Shown here piece after piece: positions 777 to 42,200 of a stretch of DNA of 59,475 bases. Location of the stretch: contig JABVCE010000019.1 of assembly GCA_014905635.1 (NCBI GenBank), forward strand, positions 682,001-741,475. Reading direction: 5' to 3'. Positions within the stretch are counted from its first letter, which is position 1. Every line of letters begins with the position of its first letter. Both the position numbers and the translations under genes were made by a program. The notes under the pieces were generated by a model that saw nothing but the letters and a program-made list of their open reading frames with translations, searched no databases and had not been told where the DNA came from. This DNA is from Scenedesmus sp. PABB004 (Eukaryota).

Positions 777-3700
777 ATGCTGCAGCGGCAGCAGCAGCGG
801 TGGCAGCAGCGGCGGCGCGGCGCGGCGCCGCCCGCGGCGCGCCCCTGCTGGGGGCTCATTCGCCCGCCGCGAGCAGTCCAGGCGGCGGCGCGCAGCACGG
901 AGCGCGCGGAGGGCGAGCTGCAGGTGCGGCGGCGAGAGCGCGGCAGCACGCGGCGACCTGATCGGCCGGCCGCTCGCGAGATCGCGCGCCGCACCCGCGC
1001 CGCCGCACCCGGCGCGCAGGTGTCGCGCGTCAGCAACAGCGGCGGCAGCCGCAAGGCGTTCAGCGAGGTGCGCGCGCGCCGTGCCGCGCCGCGCGCCGTG
1101 CCGCGCCGCGCGCCGTGCCGCGCCGCGCGCCGTGCCGCGCCGCGCGCCGTGCCGCGCCGCGCGCCGTGCCGCGCCGCGCGCCGTGCCGCGCCGCCCCCTC
1201 ACGCCGCGCGCTGCGGCGGCGCGGCGTCCCCGGCAGGCCTTCTGCCGGCTGACGGGGCTGACCACGTCCCCCGTGGTCGAGATCACGCCCGAGGCGCTCG
1301 CGGCGGCGCCGTACCCGCGCTACACGCCGCCGCTGTCAGACGTCGCCGTGCGTGCCCGCCCGCGCGCTCGGGAGCCCGCACGCGCGCCCCGCCGCACCCC
1401 ACACTTGCACCCCTCCCGCCCCGCGCGCACGCTCGCTCACACGCGCGCACTGGCACACACACAACGCGCGCGCGCAGGTGCAGCAGAAGCGCCCGTACTG
1501 GGGCGGCGGCCGCGGCTACACCGACACAGACGTCGGCTACCTGGCCTTCTTTGGCGCCATGCACGCCATTGCCCTCGTCGGCGCGCCGCTCACGGCGTCG
1601 TGGGACTGCGCGCGCCTGCTGCTCGCCGGGTGCGGCGACGGGCCGCGGCACGGGGACGGCCGCGCGCGCGCGCGCGCGCGGGGGGCCTCCCGCCCCGCTC
1701 TTGCCCACAGCCGGCCATGCTGCCCCCCCCCCCCCCATACACACACACACACACACACCGCTCGCCCCCACCCGCTCCCCCGTCCACGCCCGACCCTAAA
1801 CCCCCGCCCGCAGCTACGTTGTGACTGGGTGCCTCGGTGTGAGCCTGAGCTACCACCGCCAGCTCAGCCACAAGGCCTTCCGCTGCCCCAAGGTGACGCG
1901 CAGCGGCACGGGCCGCGCGGGCCGCGCGGGCGGCGCGGACAGCCGCAGGGGCCGCCGGGCTCGCGGGGCGCCGCCAGCTCGATCACTCCGGGAGGGACCG
2001 CTGGCGCCCCCGGGGGCGGATGTGAGCGGGCCCGCCCACATCCGTTTGCACGTGCGCTCACACTCCCGCGCTCGCGCTCCCTCCCGCGCTGTCACTCCCA
2101 CCCGCGCTGTCACCCTCTCATCCCCCCCCCAGTGGCTAGAGTACGGCCTGTCCTACTGCGGCGCGCTGGCGTTTGAGGGCGACCCCGTGGAGTGGGCCAA
2201 GATGCACACCTGGTGCGCGGGGGGGGGGGGGGGGCAGGGCTCAGGGGCGCCGGGGCTCAACGCGGAGGGCGGCTCAGGGCTTGGGGTTGGGGCTCGAGGC
2301 AGGCTCCAGGAGGGCGCGGCGCCTGCCACCCACAAGGGCGCTCGCGCCTCGCGCCGCGCTCCGACGCCGCACCGCCGTGCCGCGTGCCGCTGCGCCGCCA
2401 CACCGCGCCGCCGCGCTCGCCAGGCACCACCAGCACTCGGACACGGCCGCCGACCGGCACTCGCCGCGCGACGGCCTCTGGCACTCCCAGATGGGCTGGC
2501 TGTTTGACGAGAGCCTGACCAACACACGGTGTGTGTGTGTGTGGGGGGGGGGGTCCGGCTGGGCGGAGGGCTCGTGCGCGGGCGCCTGCGCCCAGCGCGC
2601 GCACGCGCGTGCCTCCCTTGACCGCCTCTCCCTCCCGCCGCTCGCCCACCTCCGCCCGCCCTCCCCGTCATGCGCCGCGCCGCGCAGGCGCGACGCGAGC
2701 GGCGCAGGCAAGGAGTCGCTCGCGGCGCCGTGGTTTTACGCCGAGTCGCCGGGGTTTTACGGCTGGCTGCGAGAGACCTACATGTACCACATGCTCGCCC
2801 AGGTGCTAGGGTTCAGGGTTAAGACCCTGCGCGCCGCACGGCCGGCCGCGCCGCGCGTCGTCCCCGCGGGGCGCGGCGCGCGCGGCCGGCAGTCACGTGG
2901 CCCGCCCAGCCGCCGCGGCGCCGGGGCCTGCCGCCGCGCCGCCGCCGCCGCGCCCGCGCTCGTGCTCAACCCCGCGCCTGCGCCTCCCTGCCTGCCCCCC
3001 GCCCCCAGGCGCTGTTCTTCCTGGCCTGGGGCGGCGTGCCGTACTTCATCTGGGGCTTTGTGCTGCGCGTGCTGGTCACCATGCACATGACCTGGTGCGC
3101 CGAGGGTTCAGCCCCCCCCCCCCTAAACCCCACCTGCCTCGCTCCAGCGGGCCGCGCGCCACGCCGGCAGCCCCGGCAGGCCCGCGTGGCGCGCGCGCCG
3201 CGCCGCCCCTCGGCGGCGCGAGCGCGGCGCCCCGCCTACGCGCTCCCCCCGCCGCCGCGGCGCAGGCTCGTCAACAGCGCGGTGCACGTGTGGGGCGACC
3301 AGCCGTTTGCCACGGGCGACGAGTGAGCGCGCGGCTGCCGCGCGGCCCCAGGCACTGCCAGCGGGCATGGGCACAGCCCAGGCCCGGCCCGCGCGCCGAG
3401 CTCGGTCTGTGCCTGCGGTGTGCGCCTGCGGCCCTGGAGCCCTGACGCCCGCCCCGCCCGCCGCGCGGCGCCGCAGCTCGCGCAACAACGCGGTCGTCGC
3501 GCTCCTCGTCTTTGGCGACGGCTGGTGCGCCGCGCGGCGCGGCGCGCGCGTCGCGCCGTGCACGCGCGGCACGTGCCGCGCCGTGCCGCGCCGACGCATG
3601 GCGCGGCGCCGCGCCCCCCCCCCCCCCCCCCCCCCGTCGCGGCGCAGGCACAACAACCACCATGCCTTCCCCAGCTCCGCCGCGCACGGCCTGGAGTGGT

Positions 3701-3946
3701 GGCAGGTTGACGCCTCATACGCCATCATACGGTGAGACCCTGAGGCCCCTTGCCCGCGCGGCGGGCCGGCTCACCCAGCTGGGCCGGGCTGCCCCAGTGC
3801 CCCCCCCCCCTCCCACACTCCCGCGCTGCCGCCCCGCCGCCCCCGCGCCGCCGGCTGCACCACGCAGCGCGCTGGAGGCGGTGGGCCTCGCGTGGGACGT
3901 GCGGCGGCCGACCGCGGCGCAGATGGCGCGGCTGCGGCGCAACTGA
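777..3946 (+). CDS. Acyl-lipid desaturase, delta-9-like ADS/FAD5 family, probably plastid-targeted (multi-exon)
   Basis: Joined exons give three His boxes (SYHRQLSH, MHTWHH across a splice junction, GWHNNHHAFP) plus HSPRDGLWHSQMGWLF, LVNSAVHVWG and SRNN. The Arg/Ala-rich N-terminus from ATG 777 is transit-like (start inferred). Stop TGA ends at 3946. Confidence 0.9.
1078..1193. repeat. 17-bp intronic minisatellite (GCCGTGCCGCGCCGCGC), about 7 copies
   Basis: Directly visible tandem array filling most of a desaturase intron. Confidence 0.9.
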
Positions 3947-4530: not shown

Positions 4531-6490
4531 TCAGCCCTGCTGGTGGGTCGCGTGGTTGTCGGTCTTGACGGGCGCGGGCGCGGGCGCGGTGGCCACGGCC
4601 TGGCGGGGCGCGCCCGCCACGAGGACGCCGGTCCCGTGCGACACGCCGGCGGGCGCCGCGATGAGGCGGGCGGTGCCGCTGCCGACGGTGCCGGCCTTGG
4701 CGGTGGCGCGCGGGTCGGCGGCGGACGCGACGGCCTGGTTGATGGCCTTGGCGGTCTGCTGCTGGCTGATGGTCGCGCGCGCGCCCTGGGAGCCCTGGTT
4801 GCGAGCCTGCGCGGCGAGCGCCAGGAGCAGGGGCGGAGGTGGTGTTAGGCAAGGCAGCAGGGGTGGCAGGCATGCAGCCCCGCACAGTGGCGCGGCGCAC
4901 GAGCGGCTCTGATCTGAGCGCACGGGCGGGCCAAAAGCGAAGCGAACCGCGCCACGACGCAGGGACAGCACGCACCTGGAGCAGGTGGCGACCCGTGGTG
5001 GGGCGGGGCGCGGGCGCGGTGGCCACGGCCTGGCGGGGCGCGCCCGTCACGAGCACACCGGTCTGGGGCGTCAGGCCGGCGGGCGCCGCGATGGTGCGGG
5101 CGGTGCCGGTACCGACAGCGCCGGCCACGGTGGTGGCGCGCGGGTTGGCGGCGGACTTGACGGCCTGGTTGATGGCCTTGGCGGTCTGCTGCTGGCTGAT
5201 GGTCGCGCGCGCGCCCTGGGCGCCCTGGTTGCGAGCCTGCGCGGCGAGCACCAGGAGCAGGGGCGGAGGTGGGGTCAGGCCAAGCAGCGTGGGTTGGTGT
5301 GCCGGTGTGCAGCCACGCGCGAGCGGCTCTGATCTGAGCGCACGGGCGGGCCAAAAGCGAAGCGAACCGCGCCACGACGCAGGGACAGCACGCACCTGAA
5401 GCAGGTGGCGACCCGTGGTGGGGCGGGGCGCGGGCGCGGTGGCCACGGCCTGGCGGGGCGCGCCCGTCACGAGCACACCGGTCTGGGGCGTCAGGCCGGC
5501 GGGCGCCGCGATGGTGCGGGCGGTGCCGGTACCGACAGCGCCGGCCACGGTGGTGGCGCGCGGGTTGGCGGCGGACTTGACGGCCTGGTTGATGGCCTTG
5601 GCGGTCTGCTGCTGGCTGATGGTCGCGCGCGCGCCCTGGGCGCCCTGGTTGCGAGCCTGCGCGGCGAGCACCAGGAGCAGGGGCGGAGGTGGGGTCAGGC
5701 CAAGCAGCGTGGGTTGGTGTGCCGGTGTGCAGCCACGCGCGAGCGGCTCTGATCTGAGCGCACGGGCGGGCCAAAAGCGAAGCGAACCGCGCCACGACGC
5801 AGGGACAGCACGCACCTGGAGCAGGTGGCGACCCGTGGTGGGGCGGGGCGCGGGCGCGGTGGCCACGGCCTGGCGGGGCGCGCCCGTCACGAGCACACCG
5901 GTCTGGGGCGTCAGGCCGGCGGGCGCCGCGATGGTGCGGGCGGTGCCGGTACCGACAGCGCCGGCCACGGTGGTGGCGCGCGGGTTGGCGGCGGACTTGA
6001 CGGCCTGGTTGATGGCCTTGGCAGTCTGCTGCTGGCTGATGGTCGCGCGCGCGCCCTGGGCGCCCTGGTTGCGAGCCTGCGCGGCGAGAGAGAGAGGGGG
6101 GCTGCTGGTCACAAGGCGGCGGCCGGCGCGCAACGAAAAGGGCGCCGCGGCTGCCCGCCTCGGTCGCGACCGTCGCGCACCTGGAGCAGCTGCCTCACGC
6201 CGGCCCCTGCGAGGCGAGCGGGCGGATGCGCAGGCGCGCGTGAGGCCGCGATGCCGCCGGCACGCCCGGCGCGCGTGGACAGGCCCAAACGGCGCGCAGA
6301 GGGCTGAACGTGATACCACCTGCGCCATGCATGTCTCCGGCGTGCCGCGGCTGGCGTGGACGCCCCTGGCGGCGCGCAGCGGCCGCGCATCCACATGCGT
6401 GCCCCGAGTACACCCGCGCGCACCGTCAAACGCAGCCTGCGCGCTGCCCACGAGCACCATAACGGCCAGAAGACCGATCAGGCGGGCCAT
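4531..6490 (-). CDS. Secreted tandem-repeat polyprotein, about 383 aa: signal peptide plus 4 units, each preceded by RxLLQ
   Basis: Exons 6490-6424, 6206-6181, 6076-5816, 5656-5396, 5236-4976 and 4806-4531, all GT-AG. Translation is MARLIGLLAVMVLVGSAQAAFDGAGVRQLLQ, then three identical 87-aa units (ARNQGAQGARATISQQQTAKAINQAV...PTTGRHLLQ), then a diverged unit ending HATHQQG*. Confidence 0.85.
4900..6087. repeat. 420-bp tandem repeat (261-bp exon plus 159-bp intron), about 2.8 near-identical copies, with a diverged exon copy at 4531-4806
   Basis: The sequence lines starting at 4981, 5401 and 5821 are identical at 420-bp spacing. Only isolated substitutions are seen, e.g. at 5399 and 6023. Confidence 0.95.
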
Positions 6491-6906
6491 CGTTGCTGAG
6501 ACGCGAGGCGGCGGGGCAGGCTGGTGCCGAGGCGGCCGCGGGCGCGCGTGAGCACGGAAAGCGGCCGCGTTGAGCCGGCGAACGCGTAGAGTGGGCGTGC
6601 CCGAGGCCGCACGGCGAGTACCACAGCCACTGGATCGCCGACGCCCACGATTCCGTCCGCTTCGAAACCTCGCCGGTGACAACGGATGATTGCGCCCTTT
6701 CCGCGTGCGCGGGCGCCCCCAAGACGTGCGGCATCGTCAGGAGCCAAACGCGCCGTGCGCGGTGGGTTCCTCTTGCCTCTGCACGCCGGCAGGGGCCTCG
6801 CATCGCACCCGAGTTCGCCGCGCTGTCTGCGCCTCATTTTATCGTCCGCGCCCGGCGCCGCCCACAAATCTGCCCAGACCGCAAGACCCGTGACACCGGA
6901 AGCGCA

Positions 6907-9375
6907 ATGAGGCCGTTCACGCTCCTGTGCTTGCTGTTCGTGGCTGCCGGCGTGGTGCGTGGCCAGCGCCCGGCGGCTCACGATCGCGATGCTCAGAGCC
7001 GTCCGTCGCAGCGGCGGAGGCCCCGTCTCGTGGCTGCAGCGGCCGCGCGCGGCTGCCCGGTGCACGCACGGCGGCACGCCACGCGCCCGCCGCCGCGCAC
7101 TCCCGCCGCAGGCCCGCGCGGCCGACGCGCCGCTGGCCAAGGGCCTCGCCGGCGACCCCGACACGCGGCTGTGGGCGCGGCTCATGGACGCGCTCGGCGT
7201 GCGCGCCGACGCGGCGGCGACGTACGCCACGCTCCTCACGCCCACCGACCAGGCGGTCTCGTCGTTCCTCTTCGAGATGGGCCTCACATTCGACGACCTC
7301 CTCGCGCCCGGGCGCCGCGTGCTGGTGCGGCGCCGCGCCCGCGCCCGCGCGGGCGGGGTAGGCTGGGGCTGGGCCTGAGCGCCGGGGCCGAGCGCGCACC
7401 AGCCACCTCACGTGCGCCGCCGGCCGCCGCAGGTGGACGCGCTGCTGTCGTACCACCTCGTGCCGGGCGTGGCGATCACCGACTGGCGCCGCGCCGACCC
7501 GCGCCAGCCGGGGCGCCCCCTCATCTCCGGCGACCCAGCCGCGCCAACCCAGATGACCACCGGTGGGCCGCGACGGCGGCAGCGCTCGGCGAGGCCGGCG
7601 CGCGGCCGCCGGCGCGGCGGCCAGCCCTCGCGCGCCCGCGCCCGCCCACGCGCCCGCGCCCGCGCCCGAGCGCGCCCCGCCCCGGCCGCGGCCGCGCGCG
7701 CCGCAGGCGACGTGGACGCGCTGCTGGGCGCGTACGTATCGCCCGTCACGGGCCTGGTCACCCTGCTGGACGCGCAGGGTAACCGCGCCGTGGTCGTGGG
7801 CCCGCCGCGCCGCGAGGTGCGGCGCGGGGGTCACGCTGCCCCCACCGGCGGCCGGGGCAGGCGACATCGGCGCCCCCCCCCCCCCCCCCCAAAAAAACCC
7901 GCCGGGGCAGACCGCCCCAGCCCGCAGCCCTGTCCCACACCCGACCCCTGCCCCGCCCGCGGCGCCGCAGGGCAACCTGGTCTTCCACGACGTCAGCGCG
8001 GTGCTCATGTCCTGGTCGTACTTCTTCAACGCCGTCGACGCGCTGCGCGCCTACCCCCAGGTGGGTGGGCTGCGGCTGCCAAGTGCTTTTACCAGGCTGC
8101 GCAGGCCCTCCGGCTGGCGCCGGGGGGGGGGGGGGTGTTCCGCCGCGCTCCGGGCGCCCGGGCGCGGCACGCGGGAGGCGCGCGCCGGGCGCGCCGGCGG
8201 CGGCTCACGCGCCCGCCGCGCCGCGCGGCCGCAGTGGAGCGGCGCGTCGGGCCTGCTCGCCAAGGCCGCGCTCGTGTCGCCGCCGCTCGCGGACAGCCTG
8301 ATCGGCAAGAGCGAGGCGACGTTCCTCTTCCCCAGCAACGACGCGCTCGAGGCCGACGGCTACGCGCGCCGCCTCGCGTCCGCGCCCTCCGCCCAGGCGC
8401 GGCAGCGGCGCGGCCGCGCGGCCGCGCGGCCGCGCGCGCCGGCGCTGCCCGCCCGGCCGCCCGGCTGCCCTGGCCGCCCCGGTGCAGCGTCCCACGCGCG
8501 CCCGCCTTGAACCTTGAACCTGCCCTCCCCCGCCCCGCCCCTCCCCGCAGCTCGCGGCGCTGATGTCGTACCACGTGCTGCCCGGGCTGCGCCCCGTGCC
8601 GGGCGGCTGGCCCGCCGGCGCGACGGCGCAGACGCTGCTCTCCGGTCGCAGCATCACCGCCGCGCTCTCGACGTCGTGAGCGCGCCGCGCGCCGCGCCGC
8701 GCGCCGCGCCGCGCGCGCCCGCCCCCGGCGGCCGGCTGCAGCGCCGCGGCGCCAGCAGCCCAGCCCTCACCGCGCCGCCGCCGCCGCGCCAGCGCCGCGG
8801 TCGACCCCTACTCCGGCGCGGCTGAGCGCGCGCCGCTGGTGACGCTGCGCGGCGACGGCGGGCCGCGCACCGCCAACGTGACGGTCATGAACATCTACGC
8901 CGGCAAGGTGGGGCGAGGCTCTGGGGCTTGGGTTTAGGGGTTCAGGGAGTTCAGGAGGAGGGGCTAAGGGAGGGGCTGCCGAGAGCGCGCAGCGCGGGCG
9001 CGAGGCGCCGCGGACGCGCGCGGCGCGATCAGCGAGGCCCGCCGCGTCCGCCGCCGCGTCCGCCCGCCGCAGTCGATCGTGCAGGGCATCAACAACATTC
9101 TCCGCCCCAACGACGCCGCGCTGGCGCCGCTGTTCAGCGGCGGCGGCGCCGCGCCCGCGTCGGGCCAGGCCGGCCGGCACCTGCTGCAGCGCCACCGCGG
9201 CGGCGGCGCGGCGCGCTCGCACGCCAACAACTGGGGCGCCCAGAACACGCAGCGCGCGATCCGCGCCGCGGCGCGCGGCGACATCCCGGTCTCGTATGCG
9301 ACGCGCGCGGGCAGCCGCAACGCGCAGCTCGCGCGCGGCGGGTGCGCCAACTGCTGGCGCTGGGGCGCGTGGTGA
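6907..9375 (+). CDS. Secreted protein with two fasciclin (FAS1) domains and an RHLLQ-delimited C-terminal module (multi-exon)
   Basis: Signal peptide MRPFTLLCLLFVAAGV. FAS1 H1, YH and H2 motifs occur twice: TLLTPTDQA, LLSYHLVPG, VFHDVSAVL and TFLFPSNDA, LMSYHVLPG, IVQGINNILRP. Stop TGA ends at 9375. Confidence 0.85.
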
Positions 9376-39227: not shown

Positions 39228-42200
39228 ATGGCGGCGCGCCACATCCGGCGCATGCAGCAGGCGCTGGGCGCGGAGGCGGCGCCCGCCGCCGACGGCGAGG
39301 GCAGCGAGGCGAGCGACGACGGCAGCAGCAGCGGCGACGCCGGCGGCGCTGCTGCCGCGCCGTTCAACCCCTTCGACCTGCTCAGCGACGACGACGAGGC
39401 GGAGGGCGAGGAGGAGGCGCAGGAGAGCGAGGAGGAGGCGCCGGCGCCGCCGCCTCCCAAGCCCCAGGCCGCGCCCGCGGCCGCCGGCGGCGCCGGCGGC
39501 AAGAAGAAGCGCGGCGGCGGCGGCGGCGGCAAGGCGAAGCAGGGCGGCGGCGGCGGCGGCGGCGGCGGGGGCGACGACATCGACGCGCTGCTGCAGGAGC
39601 TCAACATCGCGCCGCCGCCGGCCGCGCCGAGCGCCCAGCCGGCCGCCGCCGCCGCCGGCAGCGGCGTCGCTGGCGCGCTGCCGCCGCTGCTGGGCGTCGA
39701 CCCGCGGCGCATCCGGGGCGACGCGGAGCTGCGGCGCATGTTTGGCGCGGGCGTCGTCGCCGCGGTGGACCGCGAGACGGGTGAGCGGCGGCGGCGGGCG
39801 TGCGGGCCCGAGGCGCTGCCGCGCCGCCCGCGCTGCGCCGCACCCACCACGCGCCGCCGCCTCTTGGTGCCTGCCGCAGGCGGCGGCCGGCGTGGCCCCG
39901 GCGGGGGTGCGGGCGCGTCGGCGCGCGCCGCGGTGCGGCGCCGGCAGGTGAAGAAGCTGCTGCTGGTCACGCCGGCCGACCACTGGCCGCTGGCGGACAG
40001 CGGCATCAGCATGAAGCAGATCGGTGTGGCGCCGCGGCGGGCGGGGGAGGGCTTGGGAGGCGGGGCGCCGCCCGCCTCGCAGCCCGCCCCGCCGCCTGCA
40101 CCTCCGCCTGCCCGCTCACGCCCGCCGCGCGCGTCCAGGCACCGGCCCCGAGGGCCTCCCGCGCTTTGCGTACGCCTGGTCGGCCAACTACGGCGCCGCG
40201 CAGCGCGTGTTTGAGGCGGCGCAGGCGAGCTACGACCCCAACGCCGTCGGCGCGGTGCTCGCGCAGTTCCCCTACCACGTGGACAGCCTGCTGGCAATGA
40301 ACGACCTCTACCGCTCAATGGGCGAGGCACAGGCGCGCGCGGCGCAGCAGCGGCGCCGCGCGGCGCCGCGCGGCGCCGCGCGGCGCCGCGCGGCGGCGCG
40401 CGCTGCGAGCGGCCGCGCCCCGCCCCGCGGCGCAGACCGCGGACGACCTGCTGGCGCGCGCGCTGTACGCGCTCGAGGCGGCCTGGGCGCACGGGTTTGA
40501 CCCCGTCGCGGGCGGGCCGTCGTGCCGGCTGGACATCGAGGCGCGGGAGAACAAGGGGCTCTTCGTCGCGCTCTTCAGACACGCACAGGCGCGCCGCGGT
40601 GGCGCGCACGCCCACGGCCAGCGCGGCGCGCCGCGCCGCACGCCGCGCGCGCGCGCGCGCCCACGCTCGCGCCGCCGCGGCCGCCGCGGCGTCGCAGTCG
40701 CTGTCGCGGCGCGGGTGCCACTCGAGCGCGCTGGAGGTGACCAAGCTGCTGCTGAGCCTCGACCCGGAGGACCCGCTGGGCGGGCTGCTGCTGCTCGACT
40801 ACCTCGCCCTGCGCGCGGGTGAGGCGGCGCGGCGGCGGCTGCACACGGCGCACGGCGCACGGCGCACGGCGCACGGCGCACGGCGCACGGCGCACGGCGC
40901 ACGGCGCACGGCGCACGGCGCACGGCGCACGGCGCACGGCGCACGGCGCACGGCGCACGGCGCACGGCGCACGGCGCACGGCGCACGGCGCACGGCGCAC
41001 GGCGCACGGCGCACGGCGCACGGCGCACGGCGCACGGCGCACGGCGCACGGCGCACGGCGGGCCAGCCCCGCCTGGCGCCCGGGCGGCGCCCGCCCTCAA
41101 CCTCAACCCCGCCGCGGCGCCCCGCAGGAGCGTTTGGCTACCTCGAGCGCTTTGTGTCGGAGTTTGACAGCAGCCACTCGCTCGCGCTGCTGCCAAACTA
41201 CGCGTTTGCGCTGCCGCTTGCGCGCCTGCGCCTCGAGCAGGCCGCACAGGCAGCGCAGGGCAGCAGCAGCGCAGGCGCTGCTGCCGGCGGCTCGCCGGCG
41301 CCGATGAGCAGCCTGACGCTGCTGGCGCAGGCGCTGCTGCTGCACCCGCTCGTGCTGCGTGAGCTCATGGCCAAGCTGCAGGGCCAGGGCGTCGGCAAGG
41401 ACCTCGCCAGCACCAGCCTGCTCTCGCGGCGCCTCTTCGCAAAGGCGCGGCGCGCAGGGCGCCGCGCACGCCGCGCGCGCCGCCGCCGCGGTCTCCGCAT
41501 TGCCAAAGCCACACCACGCGCCGCCGCCGCGCCTGGGACGCAGGCGAGCGACCACGGCAGCGAGAGCCTGGGGCACCTCATCGGCCTCTTTGTGGAGCGC
41601 TCGCACCAGCTCTGGAAGGCGCCCGACGTGCAGGCCTGGCTGCGCGTGGCGGCCGAGGCCGCCGCGGACGTGGCCGACGGCAAGCGCCGCGGCGGCGTGC
41701 CGAGCGCGCCCGCGCGGCCGCCGGGCAGCCTGCCGCGGCCCGACGAGGTCCCGGTGGAGGGCAGCGCCGAGGACTGGGCGTGCGTCGCGCGCGAGAGCTT
41801 CCCCGCGACCGGGCGCAACGAGTACAGCCACCTGCGCGTGGCAGACTTCAGCGACACAGTTAACGCCCTGCCCCAGGCGCGGACGCGGGCGCGCGCGCGC
41901 AGCCGGCCGGCCCGGCGCGCCCGCGCGACGGAGCAGCGCCGCCGCTGCCGCGCACGACGCGCGCTGCGGGTGCGCGCTCCGCCGCGCCGCAGGAGGAGAT
42001 GCAGGCGGCCATGGGCGGCGGCGGCGCGCCCGGGCAGGTGCGCTGGCGGCCGCGCGCACGCGGGCGCGGCGCGGCGACGCGACGCGCCTCTCACGCGGCG
42101 CGTGGCTGCCGCGCAGGACGGGGACGCGATGGAGGCGCTGGAGGACATGCTGGTCGCGCAGCAGCTCGCCGCGGCGGGCGGCGGCGGCGCTGGCGGCCCC

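Follow-up and report, generated by a model that had tools for sequence, protein, structure and literature searches.

A predicted S1P-processed secreted repeat polyprotein in Scenedesmus, with junctions that recur on the tails of fasciclin-like proteins

Our results show that a six-exon gene on the minus strand of the window (the 59,475 nucleotides of Scenedesmus sp. PABB004 DNA analysed here) is real. Sequence comparison suggests that its protein is the first known member of a small, previously undescribed family. We lean towards reading it as a secreted polyprotein from which processing by the site-1 protease (S1P) would release four basic units with a role in the cell wall or matrix. Cleavage of the junctions by the S1P/SKI-1 orthologue of this alga, taken by itself, appears quite probable. 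The initial annotation of this DNA had described a prohormone-like secreted precursor, with one exon per unit and a terminal Gly that may be amidated. This interpretation is partly supported; it overlooked that the internal junctions follow a Gly-basic-basic pattern and that there is a link with fasciclin tails.

Joining and translating the six exons yields a coding sequence of 1152 nt and a protein of 383 aa without internal stops, and all five introns are of the GT..AG type. Exon 1 (6424..6490) carries the start codon and the signal peptide (approximately residues 1–19, with the cleavage point placed by eye). It is followed by a 217-nt intron of phase 1 within the leader (6207..6423), and by exon 2 (6181..6206), a short leader segment that ends in RQLLQ (6195-6181). 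This is the first predicted S1P-type site, and there is no Gly ahead of its motif. After the 104-nt intron 2 (6077..6180), exon 3 (5816..6076) encodes unit 1, which is 87 aa long and ends in G-RHLLQ (5830-5816). Exons 4 (5396..5656) and 5 (4976..5236) encode units 2 and 3, with the same protein sequence as unit 1 and again ending in G-RHLLQ (5410-5396 and 4990-4976, respectively). Exon 6 (4531..4806) encodes a variant unit 4 with a rebuilt C-terminus that ends in Gly (4536-4534), and closes with the stop codon (4533-4531). In the protein, RQLLQ begins with residue 27 and the three RHLLQ copies with residues 114, 201 and 288. The four introns preceding the units are of phase 0 and are positioned directly after the motif Gln, so that the statement that every junction ends at RxLLQ holds for four of the five junctions but not for intron 1. 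The locus has a GC content of 75–82% with green-algal intron signals, and its product equals in length and sequence the NCBI protein KAF8059747.1 (P0004), a "hypothetical protein" of a Scenedesmus strain.

The signal peptide, the RQLLQ motif, the four units and the terminal Gly noted by the initial annotation are all seen in this six-exon model, and its description of three identical, basic, Cys-free units of 87 aa plus a variant is borne out. Units 1–3 have a pI of 12 and lack acidic and aromatic as well as Cys residues. Each of them is rich in Ala, Thr, Gln, Gly and Pro and has two Lys and two Ser among its 87 residues; unit 4 is 78% identical to them. The N-terminus contains a strongly hydrophobic 11-mer (KD 3.24), and a hydropathy scan found no membrane segment after it. 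The RxLLQ-type motif was observed four times, against 0.011 expected per shuffled protein, where three of the four copies stem from one duplication.

Thin support for expression comes from a freshwater polyA metatranscriptome, in which one 186-nt RNA contig, of depth 4.6, skips exactly introns 1 and 2 and covers positions 5951-6075 of exon 3; the shorter side of each joint measures only 26 letters, and the contig comes from a single run. A spliced transcript is thus observed for introns 1 and 2, whereas introns 3–5 are unseen. The metatranscriptome contig search gave no cover at 5042-5509. This gap, together with the near-identity of the 420-nt copies, might suggest that the locus is a mis-assembled tandem repeat or a non-expressed gene. 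However, the copies can be told apart by silent changes, introns 1 and 2 are spliced in the RNA contig, and homologues with two to four units exist, which leaves an artefact exceedingly improbable.

The repeats form a tandem array with a period of 420 nt (4570..6088; 3.6 copies, 95% matches), in which exon and intron were duplicated as one. Since introns 3 and 4 (5657-5815 and 5237-5395) are identical and exons 3–5 contain two silent differences among them, the arrangement of one exon per unit counts as one recent event rather than four. It is a by-product of a recent 420-bp exon-plus-intron duplication, which weakens the earlier suggestion that this layout is meaningful in itself. The layout does not seem to hold across the family either. 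The gene calls of the homologues P0009 and P0010, known as protein only, look unspliced, as the junction is read through unbroken, and they start with intron-like text in the middle of a unit. This suggests that the intron position of these relatives differs from that of the focal gene. Two metagenome DNA scans found no homologue loci as DNA. The idea that RxLLQ at an exon end is a special design was rejected, as the motif stands ahead of a GTGCG donor-like site at 18 further places in the genome, many of them in ordinary genes. On G000:C13 (~538755, minus strand), a signal peptide ends directly in RALLQ at an exon end and is followed by Cys-rich repeats, apparently one per exon.

Four protein searches and one cluster look-up yielded seven homologues. 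P0006 and P0008 are two allelic proteins of Tetradesmus obliquus (354 aa, four units), P0005 and P0011 are unnamed proteins with three and two units, respectively, and P0007, P0009 and P0010 are partial calls. A hydrophobic, signal-like segment is present at the N-terminus of P0005, P0006 and P0011. Between species, the units are 25–51% identical among P0004–P0007 and up to 65% identical for P0009. Conservation of RxLL at unit boundaries, on which the initial annotation had staked its reading, held throughout: all 17 unit starts in the seven homologues keep [RK]x[LM][LM]Q, one of these sites having Lys at P4 and one Met at P2. With the focal protein included, Arg occupies P4 at 20 of 21 sites. 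In all six proteins with a leader site, this site persists although the leader sequences preceding it are unrelated, and duplication therefore cannot explain the motif at that position. In the unit tree the units cluster mostly by species, which implies that copy number changed independently.

Database searches with the family gave little else. Pfam has no family for the unit, with a Mucin match below the cut-off as its only hit, and FAS1 (PF02469) did not match the focal protein or five homologues. PF05506 was rejected for the full protein, since it passed the cut-off (24.9 versus 24.4 bits) only via the four repeats summed and matched none of five homologues. The ESM Atlas returned no usable match for the unit or P0006. 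AlphaFold models had low confidence (pLDDT 39 and 50) and were too weak for a fold search; the single-unit model (pLDDT 50) consists of a helix hairpin and a disordered tail. A search of the alga's own genome with the unit found only the four focal copies and three weak matches that were off-frame or unrelated, and a search with P0006 found nothing, missing the focal gene itself, and is therefore insensitive. In the literature searched, mostly outside subscription journals and with some listings partial, we found no report of the focal protein or of TGRHLLQ, and none of RxLL-cut polyproteins, cleavable fasciclin tails or a described secreted S1P substrate in chlorophytes. Likewise, the available portion of the main text of a Scenedesmus wall proteomics study contains no matching locus tag or accession (PMC11839794).

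Several known S1P-type motifs resemble the focal sites, including RHLL in ATF6 and RRLL or RKLL in plant pectin methylesterases, the pro-regions of which carry S1P/SBT6.1-type motifs of the R-x-L-L kind. RxLLQ also resembles the PEXEL motif of Plasmodium. All four focal sites agree with R-X-(L/V/I)-X, the consensus described for human S1P in PMC7162652. The consensus given there for plant SBT6.1, R-(R/K)-X-L or R-(R/K)-L-X, is narrower and is matched by none of the four, where P3 is Gln or His, although some homologue sites (RKLL, RKML) do fit it. S1P is described as cutting after RRLL in its own prodomain (PMC8019017), and cutting at the equivalent place would make Gln the N-terminal residue of every unit.

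The machinery that such processing would call for is encoded in the genome. An S1P orthologue at G000:C1:2413940-2416912 combines an S8 domain that carries the Asp and Ser catalytic motifs with an adjoining PF23090 (MBTPS1 fourth domain), and its best PDB match is human S1P (E 7.5e-12). PHM-like exons on G000:C37 have PAM as their best PDB matches (E 3.5e-6), and a glutaminyl cyclase gene is available for cyclisation of an N-terminal Gln. The presence of these genes is permissive only. The 76 exon-level Peptidase S8 matches in the genome point to a subtilase family of considerable size, and there are three copper type II monooxygenase loci (C1, C2 and C37), of which the one on C37 was shown to be PAM-like. 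RHLLQ sites on G000:C10, C67 and C76 occur amid Gly- or Ala-rich low-complexity sequence and possibly mark more processed secreted proteins.

The focal gene lies head-to-head with a gene of about nine exons (6907..9375, plus strand), the product of which is secreted and contains two FAS1 (fasciclin)-like repeats; the divergent start codons of the two genes are separated by 416 nt (6491..6906), possibly a shared promoter. We identified the FAS1 repeats of this neighbour by a local profile built from Pfam-positive FAS1 segments, which matched at 8542 (E 5e-8) and in four weaker exons, and by tblastn matches to other FAS1 loci; the locus is not listed by the Pfam FAS1 genome search, and PDB searches with its exons gave no relevant matches. 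The last exon contains a G-RHLLQ junction (9172-9189) and a basic tail of 62 aa with CxxC (together 9172..9372), which shows weak similarity to the repeat unit. Among 23 FAS1 loci, 17 frames contain the FAS1 end motif, and 11 of these 17 have a basic+Leu site downstream, the genes being paralogues. Related CxxC tails are found on FAS1 genes of G000 C76, C4 and C46 (two).

A profile of the unit core, from which the junction was omitted, had a single non-self match in 1.0 million residues from fetched DNA, a set enriched in FAS1 loci by choice. This match lies in a FAS1 gene at G000:C10 ~266550-266960 (minus strand; E 0.0015) and corresponds to the tail that follows GRKLLQ. With bias correction off, the scores of the C10 tail and the neighbour tail were each reached by 0 of 2000 shuffles, and with the focal units left out of the profile the score of the neighbour tail was reached by 3 of 2000. 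Column shuffles reached its family-level score in 7 of 100 and 1 of 150 cases. In pairwise shuffles the neighbour tail performed best against P0010 and P0011 (1/3000 and 3/3000), and was not significant against the focal unit (160/3000). It was absent from the bias-corrected top matches of the unit profile, and gave neither a profile-profile match to the unit beyond the motif nor a BLASTP alignment with the focal protein. These comparisons are suggestive of homology between FAS1 tails and the repeat unit. Homology of the unit to the whole family of CxxC tails is not established, as eight of the 10 FAS1 tails tested by shuffles against the unit profile were not significant and the profile-profile comparison was negative.

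The FAS1 genes vary considerably around these sites. A paralogue of the C10 gene on G000:C2 (minus strand) stops right after GRRMLL, the predicted cut point, and has no tail. At G000:C37:64000-73999 (minus strand) two FAS1 genes lie next to each other, and each has an acidic tail and two successive basic+Leu sites at a distance of 15 residues, while at G000:C36:121800-131000 (plus strand) a FAS1 block is duplicated and each copy is followed by G-RRRLMQ and a tail. In a FAS1 gene on G000:C76 (minus strand), a long poly-Ser run precedes RRHLL and a tail of 5-residue tandem repeats of the QPRME/Q type.

The conserved junction, the diverged units and the presence of the enzyme genes together make cleavage likely. 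In the mechanism that we propose, the signal peptide observed in the sequence would be cleaved as it takes the precursor into the ER, and the S1P/SKI-1 orthologue would cut after R-x-L-L in the Golgi. This would drop a leader of ~11 residues and free four units of ~8.5 kDa, each starting with a Gln that may be converted to pyroglutamate, the enzyme gene being present. The front half of the unit, which appears conserved, possibly forms a helix hairpin, and the variable, Pro/Thr-rich back half is probably O-glycosylated. With a net charge of ~+9, the units could attach to anionic polymers of the wall or function together with fasciclins expressed alongside them, a role to which we give about an even chance in view of their composition, the gene neighbourhood and analogy. 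The focal gene itself may be a detachable tail module that became free-standing and was amplified to two to four copies independently across lineages.

The precursor might instead stay uncut, as a low-complexity secreted repeat protein resembling mucins or wall glycoproteins, with RxLLQ as a structural or sorting motif. The weak, below-threshold Mucin matches would agree with this, as would the commonness of R-x-LLQ-type strings in the genome (492 six-frame matches). Yet, the leader copy of the motif is kept directly behind the signal peptide and outside the repeat, in other genes the motif stands between unrelated domains, the FAS1 linker and the tail, and an S1P orthologue is encoded, which makes an uncut protein rather improbable. 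Cationic antimicrobial or anti-grazer peptides would be a very unlikely product. They would explain the high net charge and the scarcity of acidic residues in all homologue units, as well as the multiple copies per precursor. However, the focal unit has no amphipathic excess, since 32% of shuffles reach its helical moment (fewer than 5% do so for three P0006 repeat units only), aromatic residues are absent, and large hydrophobic residues are few.

A further alternative is raised by the internal junctions, which read Gly-basic-basic/His, then LL, then Q. Gly stands directly before the basic residues at all 15 internal junctions but at none of the six leader sites, and P3 is basic or His at 15/15 internal sites. 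From its residues, this looks like an amidation-like signature. A hormone-like precursor of this kind would be cut by S1P after LL, carboxypeptidases would strip LL and then Arg/His/Lys, and PAM would amidate the unit at its newly exposed Gly, while the next unit would be capped by pyroglutamate. Besides the junction counts, it would be in line with the PHM-like gene, with Gly as the last or second last residue of all complete C-termini, and with Gly ahead of 9 of the 11 FAS1 tail sites, as against 12 of the first 100 of the 492 genome-wide matches (counted by eye). By the same count, Gly before R-x-LLQ was rejected as a genome-wide rule. In Chlamydomonas, an amidated peptide at an internal -GGHRR and removal of His by CPB-like enzymes are described (PMC6919629, PMC10886904), as are two CPB-like genes (PMC6313938), and mature silaffins are described as losing their RRIL (PMC4557024). 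In view of the -GGHRR amidation and the loss of RRIL, the units might be trimmed and amidated.

Amidation would, however, require the removal of two hydrophobic residues, a step without precedent shown in algae. The counts are not independent, because the internal junctions descend from a common ancestor and so do the FAS1 paralogues, and other Gly columns are equally conserved. The C-terminal Gly emphasised by the initial annotation is present in the focal protein, but none of the seven homologues ends in Gly: six end in PRG-L/M and one looks truncated. A C-terminal Gly followed by nothing or by basic residues only is thus found in focal unit 4 alone. PRG-L/M may be a shortened R-x-L, and one FAS1 junction reads P-RGLL. 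Moreover, the residues to be amidated vary, and 70–90 aa is long for such signals. We therefore regard the hormone-like precursor as unlikely, and consider it doubtful that units capped at both ends serve in cell-to-cell signalling. Only tentatively can G-[RK]-[RKH]-[LM]-[LM]-Q be proposed as a compound signal of the Scenedesmaceae, in which an S1P cut plus trimming would give an amide upstream and a pyroglutamate downstream, in a gene born from a fasciclin tail. If true, the focal gene would encode a polyprotein in the style of neuropeptide precursors, with S1P in place of dibasic convertases as its maturing protease, and algal prohormone surveys directed at dibasic, furin or terminal-Gly sites would miss S1P-type junctions. 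If the Gly-basic-basic-LL junction yields amides, it would represent a new route to peptide amidation.

The preferred reading, a cleaved precursor of wall or matrix peptides, has its closest parallel in diatoms. The precursors of Sil1p and the silacidins are described as being cut at RXL motifs after the signal peptide and after each repeat, and Sil1p (silaffins), silacidins, frustulins and cingulins share with the focal protein a signal peptide, an RXL-type motif and tandem units that are each closed by the motif; Sil1p also has basic repeats, and the released diatom peptides serve the cell wall (PMC4557024). The focal family likewise has a signal peptide and a motif at every repeat boundary that is kept while the repeats diverge. 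In contrast to the diatom precursors as described there, its units are 70–92 aa long instead of short Ser/Lys-rich or acidic phosphopeptides, its sites always precede Gln and the internal ones follow Gly, and there is no silica wall. The focal units are rich in Ala, Thr, Gln and Gly and lack the sequence character of silaffins and silacidins; the likeness lies in the architecture alone, and we saw no sequence relationship.

Plant propeptides cut by S1P/SBT6.1, such as RALF and CLEL/GOLVEN, also combine a secreted precursor with an R-x-L-L-type site (PMC7162652), and the protease has an orthologue in the focal genome. As far as described there, they release one product, whereas the focal protein is a tandem array with mostly His rather than Arg/Lys at P3, and with neither Cys nor a sulfated Tyr motif. 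The focal precursor works like Sil1p/silacidin and the SBT6.1 propeptides and is a member of neither. The amidated precursors of Chlamydomonas, namely proGATI (Cre03.g204500), Cre12.g487700 and Cre17.g722300, are similar by description in being secreted and in having Gly followed by basic residues or His (PMC6919629, PMC10886904), and the PAM-like gene is present in the focal genome too. In the available text, however, basic residues alone close their sites, while the focal sites continue with two hydrophobic ones. With algal FAS1 proteins, for instance Volvox algal-CAM and AstaP (PMC10147662), the link is through the neighbour and its many paralogues, which are FAS1 proteins with tails behind the same kind of junction. 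The focal protein differs from these in lacking a FAS1 domain, although two FAS1 tails resemble its unit. AstaP tails are described as disordered solubility aids, and the available part of that account mentions no cleavable tail (PMC10147662).

What is known of peptides in green algae comes largely from Chlamydomonas precursors that are processed at basic sites. If S1P processes the focal family, RXL/S1P polyprotein processing would reach beyond diatom walls and plant propeptides into the walls of green algae, and the family points to a widespread, predicted cleavable tail on algal fasciclins. It also offers a compact test, with four predicted products from one gene and an orthologue, WIA13587.1, in the model alga Tetradesmus obliquus.

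Elsewhere in the window, the 3' part of a fatty acid desaturase-like gene (~3000-3946, plus strand; weak PF00487 in one exon) is convergent with the focal gene. There are also two perfect tandem arrays, one with a 17-nt unit in 7.2 copies (1073-1194) and one with a 7-nt unit in 31 copies (40844-41060).
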